A stretch of 64,000 nucleotides of DNA from an uncultured Bacilli bacterium (GCA_947589495.1 CANQAK010000002.1:5121-69120), one strand, 5' to 3'; numbered from the stretch's first letter, positions 10,660-50,164 are shown. Program-made: numbers and translations. Notes: generated from the sequence alone by a model not told the origin.

Positions 10660-11199
10660 CTAACCTTTAAATGGCATTCCAAATGCCTTTAGTAATGCAC
10701 GAGCTTCGTCATTACTTTCTGCTGTAGTTACGAATACTATATCCATACCACGAATTTTATAAACATTATCATATTCAATTTCTGGGAAAATTAATTGTTC
10801 TTTAATTCCTAATGTATAATTTCCTTTTCCATCAAACGCATGACTTGATACACCACGGAAATCACGAACTCTAGGAAGACCTATTTTAATTAATTTTTCC
10901 ATAAAATTATACATATTTTCTCCTCTTAATGTTACTTTAACACCAACAGGTTGTCCTTCTCTTAATTTAAAACCAGCAATTGACTTACGAGCATTTGTTA
11001 CAACAGCTTTTTGTCCTGCTATTAATTCTAAATCTTTTTGAGCAGCTTCTATGAATTTCACATCATGTGAACCTTCACCAACACCCATATTAATAACTAT
11101 TTTTTCTAATTTAGGAACTTGCATTATACTTTTATAGGCAAATTCTTTCATTAAATCTTTTTTAATTTTTGATTCATATAATTCTTTAAAATTGCTCAT
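10660..11199 (-). CDS. rplE: 50S ribosomal protein L5
   Basis: Full-length L5 similarity ([15 protein letters not shown]...). Confidence 0.96.
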
Positions 11200-11861: not shown

Positions 11862-12119
11862 CTAAAGAACAACAGCTTTTTCTAAGACTTCAACTAATTC
11901 ATAATGTTTACTTTTTGAAATAGGTTTAGTAAGTCTTATTCTAACTGTATCTCCTATATTTGCTTCATTTTTTGCATCATGTGTTGCATATTTTTTAGAA
12001 TACTTAACACGTTTATTATATAATGGATGACGTTTGTAAGTTTCAACTAAAACAGTTATAGTTTTATCACATTTGTTGCTTACAACTTTACCAACTAATT
12101 CTTGAACTCTTTTAGCCAT
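11862..12119 (-). CDS. rpsQ: 30S ribosomal protein S17
   Basis: [17 protein letters not shown]...[15 protein letters not shown]. Confidence 0.95.
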
Positions 12120-17169: not shown

Positions 17170-18498
17170 TTACATCATGTTTTGAATATCTTGTATTAAT
17201 TCTTTAATACTTGCATTTTCATAAAGTTTTTGATAGATAGTAGAGTAATCTGTATCCGTCATATCTTCTAAAGAAATCTCTTCTTTATTACTTTTATATT
17301 CTTCAAATGTTGAATCTTTTTCTTCATAATTAATTGTTACTGTTAAATCTATTTTATATTCATCTAATTTAGCATTAATAGTCATAATGCCTTTATTATC
17401 ATTTACTTTATTAGTAATATTAATTTCATAATCTGGAACCACTATATTAATTTCATAATTTCCATCTTCATTAACATCTATATTTATTTTTATTCCATCA
17501 TAATTAATATTTAATTTATATGCATCACTTGAAACTGTTAAAGTACCTAAATAAATTTCTTCTTCATCTTCTTTAGTAGTAATTTTATAAGTATCTTCTG
17601 TTTGTTTAGTTAAATCTACTACTACTTTGGTATCTCCAGTAATTGTTAGTGAAACTTTTTCTATATTATCATTTCCACTTACATATATTTCACTAAGTAT
17701 TTCATAATCAACTTTTTCTAAAGAATTTTTAGTTTCACTTAGTTCACTAATAAGTGTATTTTCATCACTCTCTGTTACATTACTTAATGCATTTAACAAT
17801 CTTTTATTATTAATAATTCCATCTATAACATTATTTTCTAATTCATATATATTATCACTTGTTAAATGTAATACATGATTAACTGTTTTAACTTTTTTAC
17901 CATTAATAACTAATTCAACATCTTTCTTCTCAAAATATTCTTCTTTTAAATTAGTTTTTAATATATTAGTAAATTCTTCAACAATAATTTTTCCATCTTC
18001 ACTATTAGTATTCCATATTTCACTTAAAGAATCACTTTCATATAACTTAATTTGTTTATTATATATATCATTTAAATTTGCTGTTAATTTATTATTATTT
18101 AGTAATAGATCAGCACTTATATTTTCTTTATTATTATAACTAGCTTGTAAATTTAATATTGCACTCTTTTTACTTGCACTGGCTTTAATATTACTATTTA
18201 TTTTTAATTTATTTAATACTTTAGCTATACTATTTATACTAGAATTACTACTCTTTAAATTAAAGGACATGTCTAAATCTATTTCATTATCCAATACTGT
18301 AGTTTTTTCTTCATTAACTTTTTCAATCATCTCTGATAGTTTATCTAATGATTTATAATAAATATTTTTTGTACTCTTAGTATTTAACCAAAAATAACCT
18401 CCTATTCCAATGCCTATAAGTAATACTATTACTACCCCTATAATTATTAATAATGTCTTTCTACTTTTATTATTATTACTATTACTATTATTATCCAT
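17170..18498 (-). CDS. Hypothetical Asn/Lys-rich membrane-anchored protein
   Basis: 442-aa ORF. An MDNNSNSNNNK low-complexity N-terminus is followed by a single TM (LLIIIGVVIVLLIGIGIGGYFWL). AGGAGG RBS present. No family recognised. Confidence 0.55.
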   Translation of the reverse strand: MDNNSNSNNNKSRKTLLIIIGVVIVLLIGIGIGGYFWLNTKSTKNIYYKSLDKLSEMIEKVNEEKTTVLDNEIDLDMSFNLKSSNSSINSIAKVLNKLKINSNIKASASKKSAILNLQASYNNKENISADLLLNNNKLTANLNDIYNKQIKLYESDSLSEIWNTNSEDGKIIVEEFTNILKTNLKEEYFEKKDVELVINGKKVKTVNHVLHLTSDNIYELENNVIDGIINNKRLLNALSNVTESDENTLISELSETKNSLEKVDYEILSEIYVSGNDNIEKVSLTITGDTKVVVDLTKQTEDTYKITTKEDEEEIYLGTLTVSSDAYKLNINYDGIKINIDVNEDGNYEINIVVPDYEINITNKVNDNKGIMTINAKLDEYKIDLTVTINYEEKDSTFEEYKSNKEEISLEDMTDTDYSTIYQKLYENASIKELIQDIQNMM

Positions 18499-20019: not shown

Positions 20020-20208
20020 AGATTCTCCTTGCCTATAATATATCACAATAACCAAAAAATTACAATTTACCTAAACTAAAAAAATTGATAAAACTTTTCA
20101 TCTTATCAATTTTTATACAACACTTGTGGCGTTTGACTGGTCCAGGCCTTTTATTTCGTATAATCATTGATGTGTTCTTTCCTGGACACCCTGGGCGATT
20201 TTATCTTT

Positions 20209-21513
20209 CTAACTTTTTATGTAGAATGGACTTCCTACTTCTCCTGTACCTTCAAGTTCCACATCGGACGTCAGATAGTAGACTGGGCGAACCGCTATCG
20301 GAGTGTGTAAGCTACCGTCCTCGACACAGCCACTCGAATACACACACCACGCACGGAAGGTAGTACTCGAGCTATAATCCCGACCTATACGCGACATGGT
20401 CCATTCATAATCTGATGTTGTTCCTCCATTTTTTGATATGTGCATCCAGCCTCCTGTTTTACATGCTTCATATTTGCCTCCATTATTATGACAATTATTT
20501 GATGTTGTTGATTGATAATAATAATCATGTAAGTATATTAGTCCTATTTTAGCTGTGTTAACCATTTTTTGCCATCTTTGACCTCTTACTAATCCTGGAT
20601 TTGATGATGTTTTCCCATAATATTGTGTATCTGCTTGGCCTATTTCTATTTGATATATTTCATCAGCTGTTTTATTTGCATAACTATTTTCTATATCTCC
20701 ATAATACCATTCCCAATCTGCTATTTTATTTTTAATATCATCTGATAATTTACTTAAAAATGAATCAGTACTTCCATTTAACGTATTAAATATAGTACTA
20801 TCTGGCCATTCTGGGCAACCGTTTGTTCCACAATAATTATTAGATAATGAGTTATCATGATAGTTTGTATTCCATTTAAATGTTGTTGTACCTCCCTTAT
20901 TATATTTTGTTTGTTTCATAACCTTAATATTACCTTCTTCAGTAATTCCTATGATTCTGTACATACTGTCACTTTTATCTCCACAATTTGTATCATTTAA
21001 CTTTCCTAAACATATATAGTTATTTACATCTGCTCCTTGATATCGATACATTCCTCCGATTAAGCCTTCGCTTAATCCGCTACTGGCTTTACTTTGCAGT
21101 GTTTGCAATGTTTTAGGTAATTCTTTATCAAAATATAAATAACAATATGATGTTTGTCCTGTACTTACTATTACTTGTTGACTATCTTCATCATATGATA
21201 AACTATCTGGTATTAACTGATTATTATTATCCATACAACCTGATTTATCTTTATTTAACTTATAACCTTTTTCTGGAAATTTATCACTTGGTGCATATTC
21301 CCCATCTGATCCTTTTACCATTATTGCAAACATATTATTTTCTTCTATATCTTTTAATTTTACTTCATCTAACTGTGTTTGATATGCCGTATGTTTATGA
21401 CATATTAAAAAGGTACTTACTATTAGTATTACTCCTATTACAAATATTAATGTAGTTTTTCTTTTCTCCATATTATATAATTCACCTTTTCTTTTTGTTA
21501 ATAACTTACTCAT
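20209..21513 (-). CDS. Membrane-anchored surface protein, paralogue 1, with a C-terminal lectin-like domain carrying a DGR-type variable block
   Basis: 434-aa ORF. The more likely start is ATG 21471 (MEKRKTT..., after AAAGGTGA). It has an N-terminal TM and is about 60% identical to the neighbouring 21673..22947 product. C-terminus reads EWTMSRIGRDYSSSTTFRAWCVYSSGCVEDGSLHTPIAVRPVYYL. Confidence 0.8.
   Translation of the reverse strand: MSKLLTKRKGELYNMEKRKTTLIFVIGVILIVSTFLICHKHTAYQTQLDEVKLKDIEENNMFAIMVKGSDGEYAPSDKFPEKGYKLNKDKSGCMDNNNQLIPDSLSYDEDSQQVIVSTGQTSYCYLYFDKELPKTLQTLQSKASSGLSEGLIGGMYRYQGADVNNYICLGKLNDTNCGDKSDSMYRIIGITEEGNIKVMKQTKYNKGGTTTFKWNTNYHDNSLSNNYCGTNGCPEWPDSTIFNTLNGSTDSFLSKLSDDIKNKIADWEWYYGDIENSYANKTADEIYQIEIGQADTQYYGKTSSNPGLVRGQRWQKMVNTAKIGLIYLHDYYYQSTTSNNCHNNGGKYEACKTGGWMHISKNGGTTSDYEWTMSRIGRDYSSSTTFRAWCVYSSGCVEDGSLHTPIAVRPVYYLTSDVELEGTGEVGSPFYIKS
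20280..20406 (-). other. Candidate DGR variable region VR-1 (GC-rich, A-depleted block)
   Basis: About 52% G+C by hand count, within AT-rich flanks. It aligns without indels to 21744..21870. Differences are confined to discrete codons. Confidence 0.55.
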
Positions 21514-21542
21514 ATTTATTAACTCTTCTATCCTATATGGTT

Positions 21543-21570
21543 ATTATATAATACCCCCCCCCGGAGTCAA
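21543..21570 (-). promoter_or_regulatory. Promoter of paralogue 1 with a G9 homopolymer in the spacer
   Basis: Minus strand has TTGACT, the spacer CC-GGGGGGGGG-TATTA (16 nt), then TATAAT. The C9 run on the plus strand is at 21554-21562. Confidence 0.6.
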
Positions 21571-21624
21571 GTTTCAAATTCTATTTTGTTGTTATTTTTA
21601 CATTTTGCATGCACTGATAAACTT

Positions 21625-21663
21625 AAAAAAAATAATTACCAATTTCTATTTCAGGTAATTATT
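21625..21663 (-). terminator. Terminator after paralogue 2
   Basis: Stem AATAATTACC/GGTAATTATT followed by a T-run on the minus strand. Confidence 0.7.
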
Positions 21664-21672
21664 TTTATCTTT

Positions 21673-22947
21673 CTAACTTTTTATGTAGAATGGATCGGAA
21701 GTTGATCCTGCTCCCCCTAATTCTATATCAGATTTTAGATAGAAGACTGGGCGAACCGCATACGCATAGTTCAAGGTGCCGTCGTTGACATCGCCACTCG
21801 AAGTCACAAGCCACGCATAGAAGTTAGTGTCCGAGCTACTCCAGCGGCCAATACGCGACATGGTCCATTCATATATCTCATTTCCTGATGTTGCTCCTCC
21901 ATTATTTTTCATATGCATCCATCCTTTTGTTTGACAATATGCATAATTTGAATTTTTATCTGATTGACAACTTTCTTGGTTAGCTTGGTAATAATAATCA
22001 TGTAAATATATTAATCCTATTGATGCTGGTTCATCCATTTGTTTCCATTTTTGATCTGTTACTAATGTTCCTTGCGCATTATAATATTGTGTCTCTTTTT
22101 GTCCACTTTCTATTTTGTATGTATCTTCTACTCCTAATGTTTTTGAATAATTCCACCCTATATCTCCATAATACCATTTTTGTGGCTCTATTTTTTCTTT
22201 TATACTTTCATTTAATGTATTTAGGAATGAATCGGTTTCTCCATTTAAAGTTTTGAATATTTCACTGTCTGGCCATTCTGGACAACCTGTTGATGTATCG
22301 CATTTGCCACTACTTGAACTTCCTACATGATAATTTGTATTCCATTTTTTTGCCCCCATGCTTGTTAATTTCATGACTTTTATATTTCCATTTTCGGTTA
22401 TTCCTATGATTCGGTACATGTTGCTATTTTTATCTCCACATTTTTCATCATTTAGTTTTCCTAAACATATATAATTATTTTGTACTACACTATTTGTTCC
22501 TTGGTATCTATACATTCCTCCAACTAGTTCATTACTTAATGTATTTGTTTTATCATACTTTTCTAAGTCTGCTACCGATAATTGTTTATCAAAATATAAA
22601 TAACAATATGATGTTTGACCTGTATTTACTATTACTTGTTGACTACCTTCATCATATGATAAACTATCTGGTATTAACTGATTATTATTGTCCATGCATC
22701 CTGATTTTTCACTATTAAATTTATAACCATCTCCTGGAAATTTATCACTTGATGTATATTCCCCATTTTCTTTTACCATTATTGCAAACATATTATTATC
22801 TTTTATATCTTTTAATTTTACTTCATCTAGTTGTGTTTTATTATCCGATAATTTATTATTTATTAAAAAAATACTACTTACTATTGTTAGTATTACTACT
22901 ATTAATATTATATATATTCTATTTTTTGTATTAAGTTTATTTTTCAT
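21673..22947 (-). CDS. Membrane-anchored surface protein, paralogue 2, with a C-terminal lectin-like domain carrying a DGR-type variable block
   Basis: 424-aa ORF with RBS AAGGAAGGG and an N-terminal TM. C-terminus reads EWTMSRIGRWSSSDTNFYAWLVTSSGDVNDGTLNYAYAVRPVFYL. Confidence 0.85.
   Translation of the reverse strand: MKNKLNTKNRIYIILIVVILTIVSSIFLINNKLSDNKTQLDEVKLKDIKDNNMFAIMVKENGEYTSSDKFPGDGYKFNSEKSGCMDNNNQLIPDSLSYDEGSQQVIVNTGQTSYCYLYFDKQLSVADLEKYDKTNTLSNELVGGMYRYQGTNSVVQNNYICLGKLNDEKCGDKNSNMYRIIGITENGNIKVMKLTSMGAKKWNTNYHVGSSSSGKCDTSTGCPEWPDSEIFKTLNGETDSFLNTLNESIKEKIEPQKWYYGDIGWNYSKTLGVEDTYKIESGQKETQYYNAQGTLVTDQKWKQMDEPASIGLIYLHDYYYQANQESCQSDKNSNYAYCQTKGWMHMKNNGGATSGNEIYEWTMSRIGRWSSSDTNFYAWLVTSSGDVNDGTLNYAYAVRPVFYLKSDIELGGAGSTSDPFYIKS
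21744..21870 (-). other. Candidate DGR variable region VR-2
   Basis: About 53% G+C by hand count. It is the partner of 20280..20406. Confidence 0.55.
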
Positions 22948-36844: not shown

Positions 36845-37034
36845 GATGAAAGGACGAATTAATATCCGCGGTACCACCTTTATTTATGAATTAATCATAC
36901 ACTCTTTAGTTTTAACGCACTTCTGCAAATTAACTCCCTTATCCATACGAGATTATTTCATCCATTAATTTTCACCAACCATTAACTCTCTTAAGTAAAT
37001 CCATAATCTTCTTTAATAATTTCTTCGTTAACTA
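36845..37034 (-). promoter_or_regulatory. T-box leader (Met specifier) upstream of dut-metG
   Basis: The minus strand contains AGAGAG, a candidate specifier AUG-A in GGATGAAAT, and the invariant T-box sequence AAAGGTGGTACCGCG (36867-36878 on the plus strand as CGCGGTACCACC). Confidence 0.75.
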
Positions 37035-48304: not shown

Positions 48305-48727
48305 TTAAGAATTATCTCTTAAATTTTTAAAAAACTGTTTTAAAATTTCTTTATATCTATTTTGTAATTCTTTACAATCATTTGTTTGTATATATTTTAT
48401 TTCTTTATTAGTATCATTATTTTGAGGAACTAAATAATAAACTTTATCCAATCTACTTTCATTTATAAGCATTTTACACATATTACAAGGTTCTAAAGTT
48501 ACATACATTTCACATCCATCAAGTCGCCAATCTTTTAATTTTTTTTCCGCTAAAAGAATTGCATTTATTTCTGCATGTCCAAGTAAATTATATTTTTTTT
48601 GTCTATTATTATATCCTTTAGAAATTATTTTGTTGTTTTTTACAATAATAGCTCCTACAGGTATTTCTTTTTTATTATAAGCTTTTAAAGCTTCTTTATA
48701 TGCAACTTTCATATATTTTTCATTCAT
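48305..48727 (-). CDS. tadA: tRNA-specific adenosine deaminase
   Basis: HAEINAI and LEPCNMC. I place the start at ATG 48727, after GGGAG. The track's N-terminal extension overlaps the SRP RNA. Confidence 0.9.
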   Translation of the reverse strand: MNEKYMKVAYKEALKAYNKKEIPVGAIIVKNNKIISKGYNNRQKKYNLLGHAEINAILLAEKKLKDWRLDGCEMYVTLEPCNMCKMLINESRLDKVYYLVPQNNDTNKEIKYIQTNDCKELQNRYKEILKQFFKNLRDNS

Positions 48728-48750
48728 AAATAAGCACTCCCATAAAAAAA

Positions 48751-48821
48751 GCACACACAAACAGGGAACGATATGGCTGCTGTCTTCCAACTCTGACCAG
48801 TTTACGTTATATTTGTTGTGC
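48751..48821 (-). ncRNA. ffs: Small (4.5S-type) signal recognition particle RNA
   Basis: Minus strand reads GCACAACAAAUAUAACGUAAACUGGUCAGAGUUGGAAGACAGCAGCCAUAUCGUUCCCUGUUUGUGUGUGC followed by a U-run. The domain IV core GGUCAG..GGAAG.CAGCAGCC matches the conserved SRP RNA motif. The 5' and 3' ends pair. A promoter lies just upstream. Confidence 0.75.
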
Positions 48822-48827
48822 AAAAAA

Positions 48828-49010: not shown

Positions 49011-49138
49011 AATTGGTTGACATAATATTTTTACCAATTTTCATGAGATTTGGTAATATAGCTAAAATTATGCATTAAATTTATTTGGATTCTATTTATA
49101 TTTATAATTATATTATTTTGTATAAATTTTCTTACTCA

Positions 49139-49649: not shown

Positions 49650-49737
49650 ATTGAATAGACATTTAATAAAAAATATTTAAGATAGTAATTGCTTTACCAA
49701 TTCTTATAAGATTTGGCAAAAATATTATGTAAACCAA

Positions 49738-49753
49738 ATATTTCCCGGGAAAT
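49738..49753. promoter_or_regulatory. NBS palindrome, copy 3
   Basis: Perfect TATTTCCCGGGAAATA. Confidence 0.7.
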
Positions 49754-49930
49754 ATTTTTTGTATTAACAACAATAATAAAATAAAAGATAAATAAAATGA
49801 TCTAATAAATTTAAATAACTATTAAGCTTATTAAATACTTTATAAATGATAATGTTAATTCTTTTAATAATTAAAAATAAATAAAAACTATAATAAATTT
49901 TTTGAATCAGAAATATATTATGTCAACCAA

Positions 49931-49946
49931 TTATTTCCCGGGAAAT
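49931..49946. promoter_or_regulatory. NBS palindrome, copy 4
   Basis: Perfect TATTTCCCGGGAAATA. Confidence 0.7.
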
Positions 49947-50123
49947 ATTTTTTGTATTAACAACAATAATAAAATAAAAGATAAATAAAATAATCTAATA
50001 AATTTGAATAATTATTCAGTGTGTTAAATACTTTATAAATAATAATTTTAATTCTTTTAATAATTAAAAATTAATAAAAACTATAATAATTTTTTTAAAT
50101 CAGAAATATATTATGTCAACCAA

Positions 50124-50139
50124 TTATTTCCCGGGAAAT
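50124..50139. promoter_or_regulatory. NBS palindrome, copy 5
   Basis: Perfect TATTTCCCGGGAAATA. Confidence 0.7.
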
Positions 50140-50164
50140 AATTTTTACAAAAAGAAAAAGAATA

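Follow-up and report, generated by a model that had tools for sequence, protein, structure and literature searches.

Variable 3' blocks in two tandem, putative surface-protein genes of an uncultured Bacilli bacterium point to a diversity-generating retroelement acting in trans

Introduction

Two tandem genes on the minus strand of a 64,000-nt stretch of DNA from an uncultured Bacilli bacterium (GCA_947589495.1, CANQAK010000002.1:5121-69120; hereafter the window) raise the question of how a short block near each 3' end came to be G+C-rich, adenine-poor and different between the copies at only some of its positions, in a window with an overall G+C content of 25.5%. A reading of the sequence alone had attributed these blocks to adenine-directed mutagenesis by a diversity-generating retroelement (DGR), in which a variable region (VR) is rewritten from a template repeat (TR) with the help of a reverse transcriptase (RT), while noting that neither a template nor an RT was in sight. 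Based on the agreement of both blocks with a TR that lies beside a DGR-type RT on a related contig, we consider it very probable that the two genes, designated gene 1 and gene 2, are chromosomal, non-adjacent targets of a DGR whose TR/RT cassette is located outside the window.

Results

Scanning the window with a version of the block in which the discordant positions were masked, we recovered the two blocks and nothing else, both on the minus strand (Table 1), and shuffled sequence gave no match. These blocks, VR1 in gene 1 and VR2 in gene 2, end about 70 nt upstream of the stop codon and align without gaps over 126 nt, being identical at 94 positions and discordant at 32; the sequence-only reading had likewise counted 32 differences and no indels, albeit over 111 compared positions of a block taken to be 127 nt long, where the proper denominator is 126. 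Its estimate of block G+C (52-53%) was slightly low vs. the 55% and 56% that we measured, but the blocks do stand far above the 27-29% found outside them in the same genes. Adenine accounts for 17-19% of the blocks and for 14 of the 94 invariant positions, in line with the scarcity estimated earlier (about 10 in about 80). The claim that the blocks are rich in otherwise rare codons was also borne out: codons used fewer than 3 times per 1000 in 25 open reading frames (ORFs) of the window comprise 2.9% of the codons in those ORFs and 19-20 of the 42 codons in each block, and the edges of this rare-codon island are abrupt. Overall, the two genes share 73% nucleotide identity, and the near-identity noted in parts of their 5' halves corresponds to a 91% match over 188 nt (21118-21305 vs. 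22579-22766).

A comparison confined to two copies has its limits, as it cannot decide whether every discordant site derives from an adenine. Any site at which the copies differ may be called an adenine in the template, rendering the original argument partly circular, and the claimed skew of the differences toward codon positions 1 and 2 is weaker over the whole block than had been implied (12/12/9 at positions 1/2/3). A split that is not extreme would also suit ordinary paralogue divergence under diversifying selection, with the G+C-rich scaffold kept by gene conversion or codon selection and no retroelement being involved. The evidence that separates the two explanations comes from a template that is independent of the window.

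With the RT of a complete DGR in the same protein family (locus L010, described below) as query, a search for homologues returned P0141, a 375-aa RT. The longest contig for P0141 measures 36,590 nt, as does that for P0012, the relative nearest to gene 1 (70% identical in amino acids and 80% in nucleotides, the latter over 907 nt), and on this account both appear to share one NCBI contig. An RT identical to P0141 is found on three ENA contigs (assemblies ERZ27249206, ERZ27249221 and ERZ27059539), among them L082, which starts inside a TR (AACACTAACTTCAATGCGTGGAATGTGAATTCGAGTGGCAATGTCAACAACAACAACTTGAACAATACGAATGCGGTTCGCCCA, then GCCCACTATAAC) and continues with a MutS_I-like gene (E=4e-5), bAvd (E=8e-6) and an RVT_1 RT (E=1e-16) harboring IGNMTSQ and YMDD motifs. 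The TR on L082 represents the 3' 84 nt of the template, aligned at offset 39 of the 126-nt block; it codes for NTNFNAWNVNSSGNVNNNNLNNTNAVRP and contains 30 adenines in its 84 nt, 29 of these at codon positions 1-2. Neither a repeat look-up of P0141 nor scans of the collections yielded the missing 5' portion of this TR.

When VR2 was compared with this TR, each of the 13 mismatches fell on a TR adenine (13/13; hypergeometric P=1.9e-7 over 84 nt), with VR2 being identical to the TR at 54/54 non-adenine positions and the differences splitting 9/4/0 by codon position 1/2/3. For VR1, 18 of 23 mismatches fell on TR adenines (hypergeometric P=1.2e-6 over 84 nt), with a split of 9/9/5, so the codon-position skew that is faint between the two VRs is clear against the real TR. 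The template predicted by setting every discordant site to A agrees with the real TR at 76 of its 84 recovered positions; the errors are found at sites where both VRs have the same mutated base (GAC GGN vs. AAC AAC in the TR) and at sites of VR1 drift. The broader assertion of an adenine origin for all discordant sites is wrong for five of them, at which the TR reads C, C, C, G and T.

These data contradict ordinary divergence between paralogues, which we have rejected and consider extremely improbable, as evidenced by: 1) an independent TR, positioned next to a DGR RT, predicts the variable sites with P about 1e-7; 2) the scaffold is identical even at synonymous sites whereas the flanks differ by 27%; 3) the rare-codon island has abrupt edges; 4) a complete canonical DGR occurs within the family, at L010. 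Another diversification mechanism, an option raised earlier, is not needed. As for the age of the event, gene 2 outside VR2 shares about 72% identity with L084 (the locus of P0012) and 73% with gene 1. With VR2 equal to the TR at 54 non-adenine sites in a gene that is otherwise about 27% different, VR2 was overwritten well after the genes diverged, its source being the L082 TR or a near-identical one and the event being recent relative to gene divergence. VR1, by comparison, is probably rewritten rarely or no longer and looks partly decayed, in view of its five third-position changes (mostly toward A/T) and a changed base in its 3' end, as described below.

Table 1. Features of the gene pair and of the related template
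Feature	Position	Strand	Description and basis
Gene 1	20209..21513	minus	434 aa counted from first ATG; ORF list
Gene 2	21673..22947	minus	424 aa; tandem paralogue of gene 1; carries VR2
VR1 block	20281..20406	minus	126 nt, 55% G+C; near gene 1 3' end
VR2 block	21745..21870	minus	126 nt, 56% G+C; near gene 2 3' end
VR1 part aligned to TR	20284-20367	minus	23 differences: 18 at TR adenines, 5 elsewhere
VR2 part aligned to TR	21748-21831	minus	13 differences, all at TR adenines
TR stretch given for L082-type template			...AACACTAACTTCAATGCGTGGAATGTGAATTCGAGTGGCAATGTCAACAACAACAACTTGAACAATACGAATGCGGTTCGCCCAGCCCACTATAAC
VR1 3' end, similar to initiation of mutagenic homology (IMH)	20270..20295	minus	GCGGTTCGCCCAG identical to TR, then TCTACTATCTGAC; TR reads CCCACTATAAC
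VR2 IMH-like 3' end	21734..21759	minus	GCGGTTCGCCCAG, then TCTTCTATCTAAA
Hydrophobic N-terminal segment, gene 1	21400..21459	minus	KTTLIFVIGVILIVSTFLIC; translation; basic residues precede
Hydrophobic N-terminal segment, gene 2	22858..22917	minus	IYIILIVVILTIVSSIFLIN; translation
Promoter-like site, gene 1	21543..21570	minus	TTGACT-CC-G9-TATTA-TATAAT, 16-nt spacer; promoter scan, 11/12 matches
G9 tract	21554-21562	C9 on plus strand	inside gene 1 promoter-like spacer
Hairpin	21624..21660	minus	AATTACC...GGTAATT, then T-run; just 3' of gene 2 stop; sequence read directly

The ends of the blocks were also informative. The stretch GCGGTTCGCCCAG is followed by TCTTCTATCT in the VRs (TCTACTATCT in the case of VR1) and by CCCACTATAAC in the TR. 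The decamer TCTTCTATCT is common to VR2, the VR of L084, which is a probable cis-target, and the VR of the complete L010 cassette, while the decamer of VR1 differs from it by one T-to-A change. Thus a G+C-rich stretch common to VR and TR precedes sequence in which VR and TR diverge, and L010 is laid out alike. Taking the IMH/IMH* arrangement in the DGR of Bordetella phage BPP-1 as the basis of comparison, we find that this layout corresponds to IMH and IMH* of characterised DGRs, with an IMH role being likely by analogy. At the other end, the invariant adenines of GAATGGACCATG were considered as a possible problem and dismissed as such. In L010, TR homology begins at the codons after EWLS; by the same token it would probably start near TCGCGT here, placing GAATGGACCATG outside the TR, so that its adenines never vary.

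Relatives of the two proteins are numerous. We found 470 in a large protein collection, several of which may sit on one contig, and all that are named come from metagenome-assembled genomes (MAGs) of uncultured 'Bacilli bacterium'; one of them, P0009, is a 719-aa two-domain paralogue on the 81.5-kb source contig of the window, outside the window itself. The family motif EWTMSR.G...AW.V...G.V....L.....VRPVFYL is conserved, with the residues between its fixed positions being hypervariable. A single-protein search of genome contigs found no relative; species-representative genomes, when scanned with the alignment of the family, yielded 78 loci, mostly from rabbit-gut MAGs and at no more than 38% identity, with about 20 of the 78 from a single MAG. 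Among them, L010 carries a family member (163-1560) with a VR at 1376-1497 and a TR at 1693-1814, and all 25 in-repeat mismatches between them (25/25) are changes from a TR adenine to another base in the VR. Immediately downstream are a MutS-domain-I-like ORF, a bAvd ORF and an RT with DGR motifs, in this order. The family is thus proven to be a DGR target, and on the basis of this complete DGR the G+C-rich, adenine-poor C-terminal blocks of the family can be regarded as DGR variable regions. The L010 VR has 61-62% G+C and 14% A in a locus of 27% G+C, and VR1 and VR2 are close to it in both respects. Across 94 family genes (L001-L079 and the window), the 120 nt that precede the VRPVFYL codons range in G+C content without a break between 0.64 and the background of 0.28, with VR1 and VR2 at the fresh end; this continuum suggests a series from freshly rewritten to fully decayed VRs.

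Other members of the family displayed variations on this arrangement. A second VR-like block occurs at 16091-16212 of L041, another contig of the MAG that carries the L010 DGR; this block equals the L010 TR at only 72 of 84 non-adenine positions and represents either a remote target in decay or one that belongs to a second TR. Paralogues of about 710-724 aa have two copies of the C-terminal domain, each with its own G+C-rich VR-like block, as in P0002 of L001 (710 aa; blocks at 11030-11160 and 11936-12060, with G+C of 0.52 and 0.47) and in P0009 on the source contig of the window. In P0025 (386 aa), a frameshift just before the VR puts the cassette out of frame, resulting in an Arg/Ala/Gly-rich tail, and this gene is probably a pseudogene still carrying its VR.

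As to the whereabouts of the cassette, our search covered the 64 kb of the window out of the 81.5-kb source contig, and the earlier statement that it contains no A-rich copy, RT or Avd held in every scan. With the masked pattern at up to 3 mismatches and with a sliding count over the invariant positions, we found neither a TR nor a third block copy in the window; the top candidate matched 40 of 94 invariant positions, which is background level. An IGNxxSQ motif is absent from all frames of the window. A hidden Markov model (HMM) built from 120 DGR-type RTs had no match at E<=10 in the six-frame translation of the window (positive controls: 1e-175 and 1e-183), and phmmer detected nothing in the window for Avd and MutS-like proteins. 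The A-rich template next to a DGR-clade RT that had been foreseen is present on the related contig L082, but not in the 64 kb.

Several observations weigh against assigning the gene pair to a remote DGR: 1) the TR and RT are known from other assemblies, namely the three ENA contigs and probably an NCBI contig; 2) the TR comparison is limited to 84 nt, as the 5' 39 nt of the block precede the start of L082, and the first codon of L082, which sits at the contig end, may be unreliable; 3) five mismatches of VR1 lie at third codon positions instead of TR adenines (C>T, C>G, C>T, G>A and T>A); 4) in the 5' part of the block, VR2 reads GGC where five other VRs read GGT, which from the sequence is probably one non-adenine difference. 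The absence of an RT, Avd, MutS-like gene and TR from the 64 kb counts in favor of an alternative in which both cassettes are fossils, written by an L082-type DGR in an ancestor and left to ordinary decay once RT and TR were lost. The VR1 changes point the same way, four of the five being from G/C to A/T as A+T-biased decay predicts, as does P0009, a paralogue on the same contig with at least 3 protein-level changes that require non-adenine substitutions; in addition, the G+C continuum of 0.64-0.28 over 94 members suggests that many relatives are decayed VRs. Set against these are the absence of any non-adenine change among 54 positions of VR2 while the flanking gene diverged by about 27%, and the position of both blocks at the fresh end of the G+C range. 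Furthermore, DGRs are often far from their targets, so absence from 64 kb says little: remote or non-adjacent targets were reported for 45 of 372 DGRs, seven of them being counted in Treponema alone, and in ten DGRs a target is separated by more than 100 kb (PMC5758913). On balance, we consider it unlikely that both cassettes are fossils, although that account may apply in part to gene 1, with its five non-adenine third-position changes; VR2 has none in 54. Among the options first raised, a remote DGR acting in trans on two targets fits best, given the TR and RT on L082 and the location of the mismatches at TR adenines.

We then consider what these variable regions encode. Searches of both proteins against Pfam and NCBIfam yielded nothing above cut-off: for PF19789 (DUF6273), gene 2 scored 15.8 bits vs. 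a cut-off of 23.5 bits and gene 1 had no hit, and DUF1566 gave no hit for either protein. The longer paralogues P0004, P0006 and P0009 have a precomputed PF19789 hit. An AlphaFold2 (AF2) model of full-length gene 1 (pLDDT, the predicted local distance difference test score, 82.6) combines an N-terminal helix with a beta-sandwich domain and a large domain at the C-terminus, and the C-terminal 290 aa were modelled at a pLDDT of 95.9. A Foldseek search of BFVD, a database of predicted viral structures, returned 16 hits at E<=1e-3, the top ones being gut-phage DUF6273 proteins (E=7e-8, probability 1.0, template modelling (TM) scores of 0.4-0.6). No significant match emerged from a fold search of PDB, in which the weak best hits were the mannose receptor's C-type lectin-like domain (CTLD) and the C-terminal domain of Legionella Lcl (E about 0.3), and a profile search of PDB returned nothing. 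Published work describes DUF6273 as C-lec-like and as targeted by DGRs, the VR being placed at the C-terminus of the domain (PMC10743442, PMC11792537). The C-type-lectin/DUF1566-like scaffold proposed from the sequence is supported only indirectly: the domain is DUF6273-like by model, the PDB matches to C-type lectins being insignificant and DUF1566 not being hit at all. Based on these models, the gene 1 and gene 2 products are best described as membrane-anchored, DUF6273-like variable proteins; in gene 1, the DUF6273-like domain that contains VR1 is C-terminal, behind a probable N-terminal anchor and an Ig-like beta domain.

That the closest structural matches are phage DUF6273 proteins, and that the composition of the cassettes is foreign to the host genome, might also be taken to mean that the cassettes are recent horizontal imports, e.g. 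from a phage DUF6273 receptor-binding gene, recombined into both paralogues. We rejected this possibility, which we deem most improbable, because it leaves the adenine-specific pattern unexplained and because the island is only about 126 nt long, with the rest of the domain being host-like and conserved over hundreds of chromosomal paralogues. Nor was a phage source seen directly: the VR scaffold pattern and a TR 30-mer had 0 matches in viral and Joint Genome Institute (JGI) metagenome contigs.

The hydrophobic N-terminal segments of both genes (Table 1) are, from their sequence, probable membrane anchors. In the gene 1 N-terminus, AF2 placed a helix at 4-40 with low confidence; the ATG at 21471, with a Shine-Dalgarno-like AAAGGTGA upstream, may be the true start of this gene. 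Gene 1 and gene 2 are probably transcribed separately, as a terminator-like hairpin follows the gene 2 stop codon; this hairpin did not appear in the output of a consensus terminator scan.

Besides the VR, gene 1 has a second unusual element, namely a G9 tract within the spacer of its promoter-like site (Table 1); gene 2 is without a poly-G promoter tract. Nearly every paralogue in the family has a G8-G9 tract in a TTGAC(T/A)...TATAAT spacer (e.g. L010 123-130, L080 1414-1421). Among related loci and the window (976 kb), tracts of G>=8 numbered 57 vs. 0.16 expected, always in the orientation of the downstream gene. When tracts of G>=7 were included, 49 of 62 lay directly upstream of family members, with the others being located at the ends of loci or upstream of membrane-anchored proteins outside the family. 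Spacer lengths among paralogues (tracts G7-G9) were 16 nt (n=36), 15 nt (n=14), 17 nt (n=1) and 14 nt (n=1), and tract length differs between the window (G9) and the related L080 (G8). These features suggest that the poly-G promoter is a candidate family-wide switch for phase variation by slipped-strand mispairing. The tract is however uniform, mostly G8, across many genomes and could be a conserved regulatory element instead. The same poly-G promoter context was seen ahead of genes not recognisable as family members (L031 10334, L048 1022, L070 997, L071 6438, L077 1876, L017 12148 and L021 2148), all of which encode an N-terminal hydrophobic anchor, some with a pilin-like N-terminus (MDKKNTMLLTVIAVATLLVAVVGATFAYF).

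The neighbourhood of the gene pair is core chromosome (gpmI, spo0A, pgk, gap, gyrA, gyrB, mfd and yidC) and not a prophage. Downstream of the gene 1 stop codon is a patch (20100-20208) of up to about 40% G+C, the first 25 nt of which (TAGAAAGATAAAATCGCCCAGGGTG) are common to the sequence after the P0012 stop codon in L084; DNA folding of the G+C-richer patch at 20085-20215 gave a z-score of -0.8 and no notable structure. Adjoining gpmI on the minus strand (17170-18498) is a gene for a protein of 442 aa that is rich in Asn, has a hydrophobic anchor at its N-terminus and lacks a Pfam match; it may be another lineage-specific surface protein. Farther away, a T-box leader (36847-37034, minus strand) scored 81 bits vs. 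the Rfam gathering score of 93 (E=4e-18), and one portion shares 90% identity with the leader found upstream of tyrS in L001. A gene for the small bacterial signal recognition particle (SRP) RNA is located at 48745-48827 on the minus strand (48.6 bits); the start of ORF 48305-48823, which overlaps it, is probably overcalled for this reason. The 1.3-kb non-coding stretch from the SRP RNA gene to the 3' end of gyrA contains a 193-nt tandem repeat (49718-50146; 2.2 copies, 93% matches), each unit of which holds the palindrome ATTTCCCGGGAAAT, and a second inverted repeat, TTCAATGTTTCACGTGAAACATTG, is found at 49126 and 49621.

Discussion

In the scheme that we propose, the two genes would encode membrane-anchored surface proteins in which the tip of a DUF6273-like (C-type-lectin-like) domain is specified by the VR, while a cassette of TR, MutS-like gene, bAvd and RT would reside outside the 64 kb. 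RNA of the TR would be reverse-transcribed with random misincorporation opposite adenines, and the resulting cDNA would replace the VR, guided by the G+C-rich 3' homology of GCGGTTCGCCCAG and TCTTCTATCT. About 15 AAY codons would be rewritten in this manner, with the adenine-free scaffold codons (TCG, GCG, GGC, CGC and GTC) copied intact; it is this unchanged copying of an adenine-free scaffold that would account for a G+C-rich rare-codon island in a genome of 25% G+C. By inference, this genome would contain the TR, or one nearly identical to it, in active form. Likewise presumed are the roles of the IMH-like sequence and the accessory proteins, as well as the surface location and ligand-binding role of the gene 1 and gene 2 products.

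The mechanism itself is already known; what is new is the host lineage and the chromosomal target family of a cellular DGR with remote paralogous targets. A close parallel is the Treponema denticola DGR (TvpA plus seven remote targets), which is likewise cellular and non-phage, with one TR serving scattered paralogous surface-protein genes and with the target VR at the C-terminal end of a lectin-like domain. Its targets are lipoproteins with a CLec domain of the formylglycine-generating enzyme (FGE)-sulfatase type and its cassette has an HRDC accessory gene, in contrast to the DUF6273-like domain, the N-terminal membrane anchor and the linked MutS-like gene plus bAvd here. A MutS-domain-I-like protein together with Avd is shared with Legionella pneumophila (LdtA) and with the MutS-like (MSL)-containing 'architecture D' DGRs (Wu et al. 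2018), and the combination of MutS-like accessory genes with avd is documented (PMC5758913); the order TR, MSL, avd, RT is the same in L082 and L010. In Legionella, the DGR is part of a genomic island and acts on an adjacent lipoprotein, whereas the target family and host lineage (uncultured low-G+C Bacilli of the animal gut) are different here. The DUF6273 DGR targets of gut phages (tentaclins; a Faecalibacterium prophage) appear to belong to the same fold class and have the VR at the DUF6273 C-terminus (PMC10743442, PMC11792537). Those are tail or capsid-decoration proteins encoded in prophages close to the RT, unlike the genes described here, which are core chromosomal, have membrane anchors, form a many-copy paralogue family and score below the Pfam gathering cut-off.

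Homopolymers in promoter spacers are known to mediate phase variation in Mycoplasma hyorhinis vlp (poly-A), Neisseria porA and opc (poly-G/C) and Bordetella fim (poly-C), and the position of the poly-G tract in the spacer is the same here. In contrast to those promoters, the tract in this family is a candidate switch, and its G8 form is unusually uniform across many genomes. In one literature search combining DGRs with homopolymer promoter switches, none of the 12 matches listed mentioned DGRs. We tentatively entertain, as a possibility to which we would give slightly less than even weight, a two-layer form of programmed surface variation in a host-associated lineage of low-G+C Bacilli, in which poly-G tracts turn individual copies on or off by slippage and one chromosomal DGR hypermutates the ligand-binding tip in a changing subset of the paralogues in trans. 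If so, copies that are not targeted would decay toward A+T, and the G+C content of a cassette would be a record of its last rewriting.

In practical terms, this locus shows that a DGR target is recognisable from raw sequence alone, and the template was predicted at 76 of 84 positions and later confirmed; the sign to look for in an A+T-rich genome is an island with abrupt edges, G+C-rich, poor in adenine and made of rare codons, where a surface-protein gene has its 3' end. The known DGR targets are thereby extended to a large family of DUF6273-like, membrane-anchored proteins encoded on the chromosomes of uncultured gut Bacilli, with a fold known mainly from phage receptor-binding proteins, and this family offers a natural series of freshly rewritten to decayed variable regions. 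For the bacteria themselves, the family-wide pairing of poly-G promoters with DGR targeting would provide a testable model of surface variation in a commensal.

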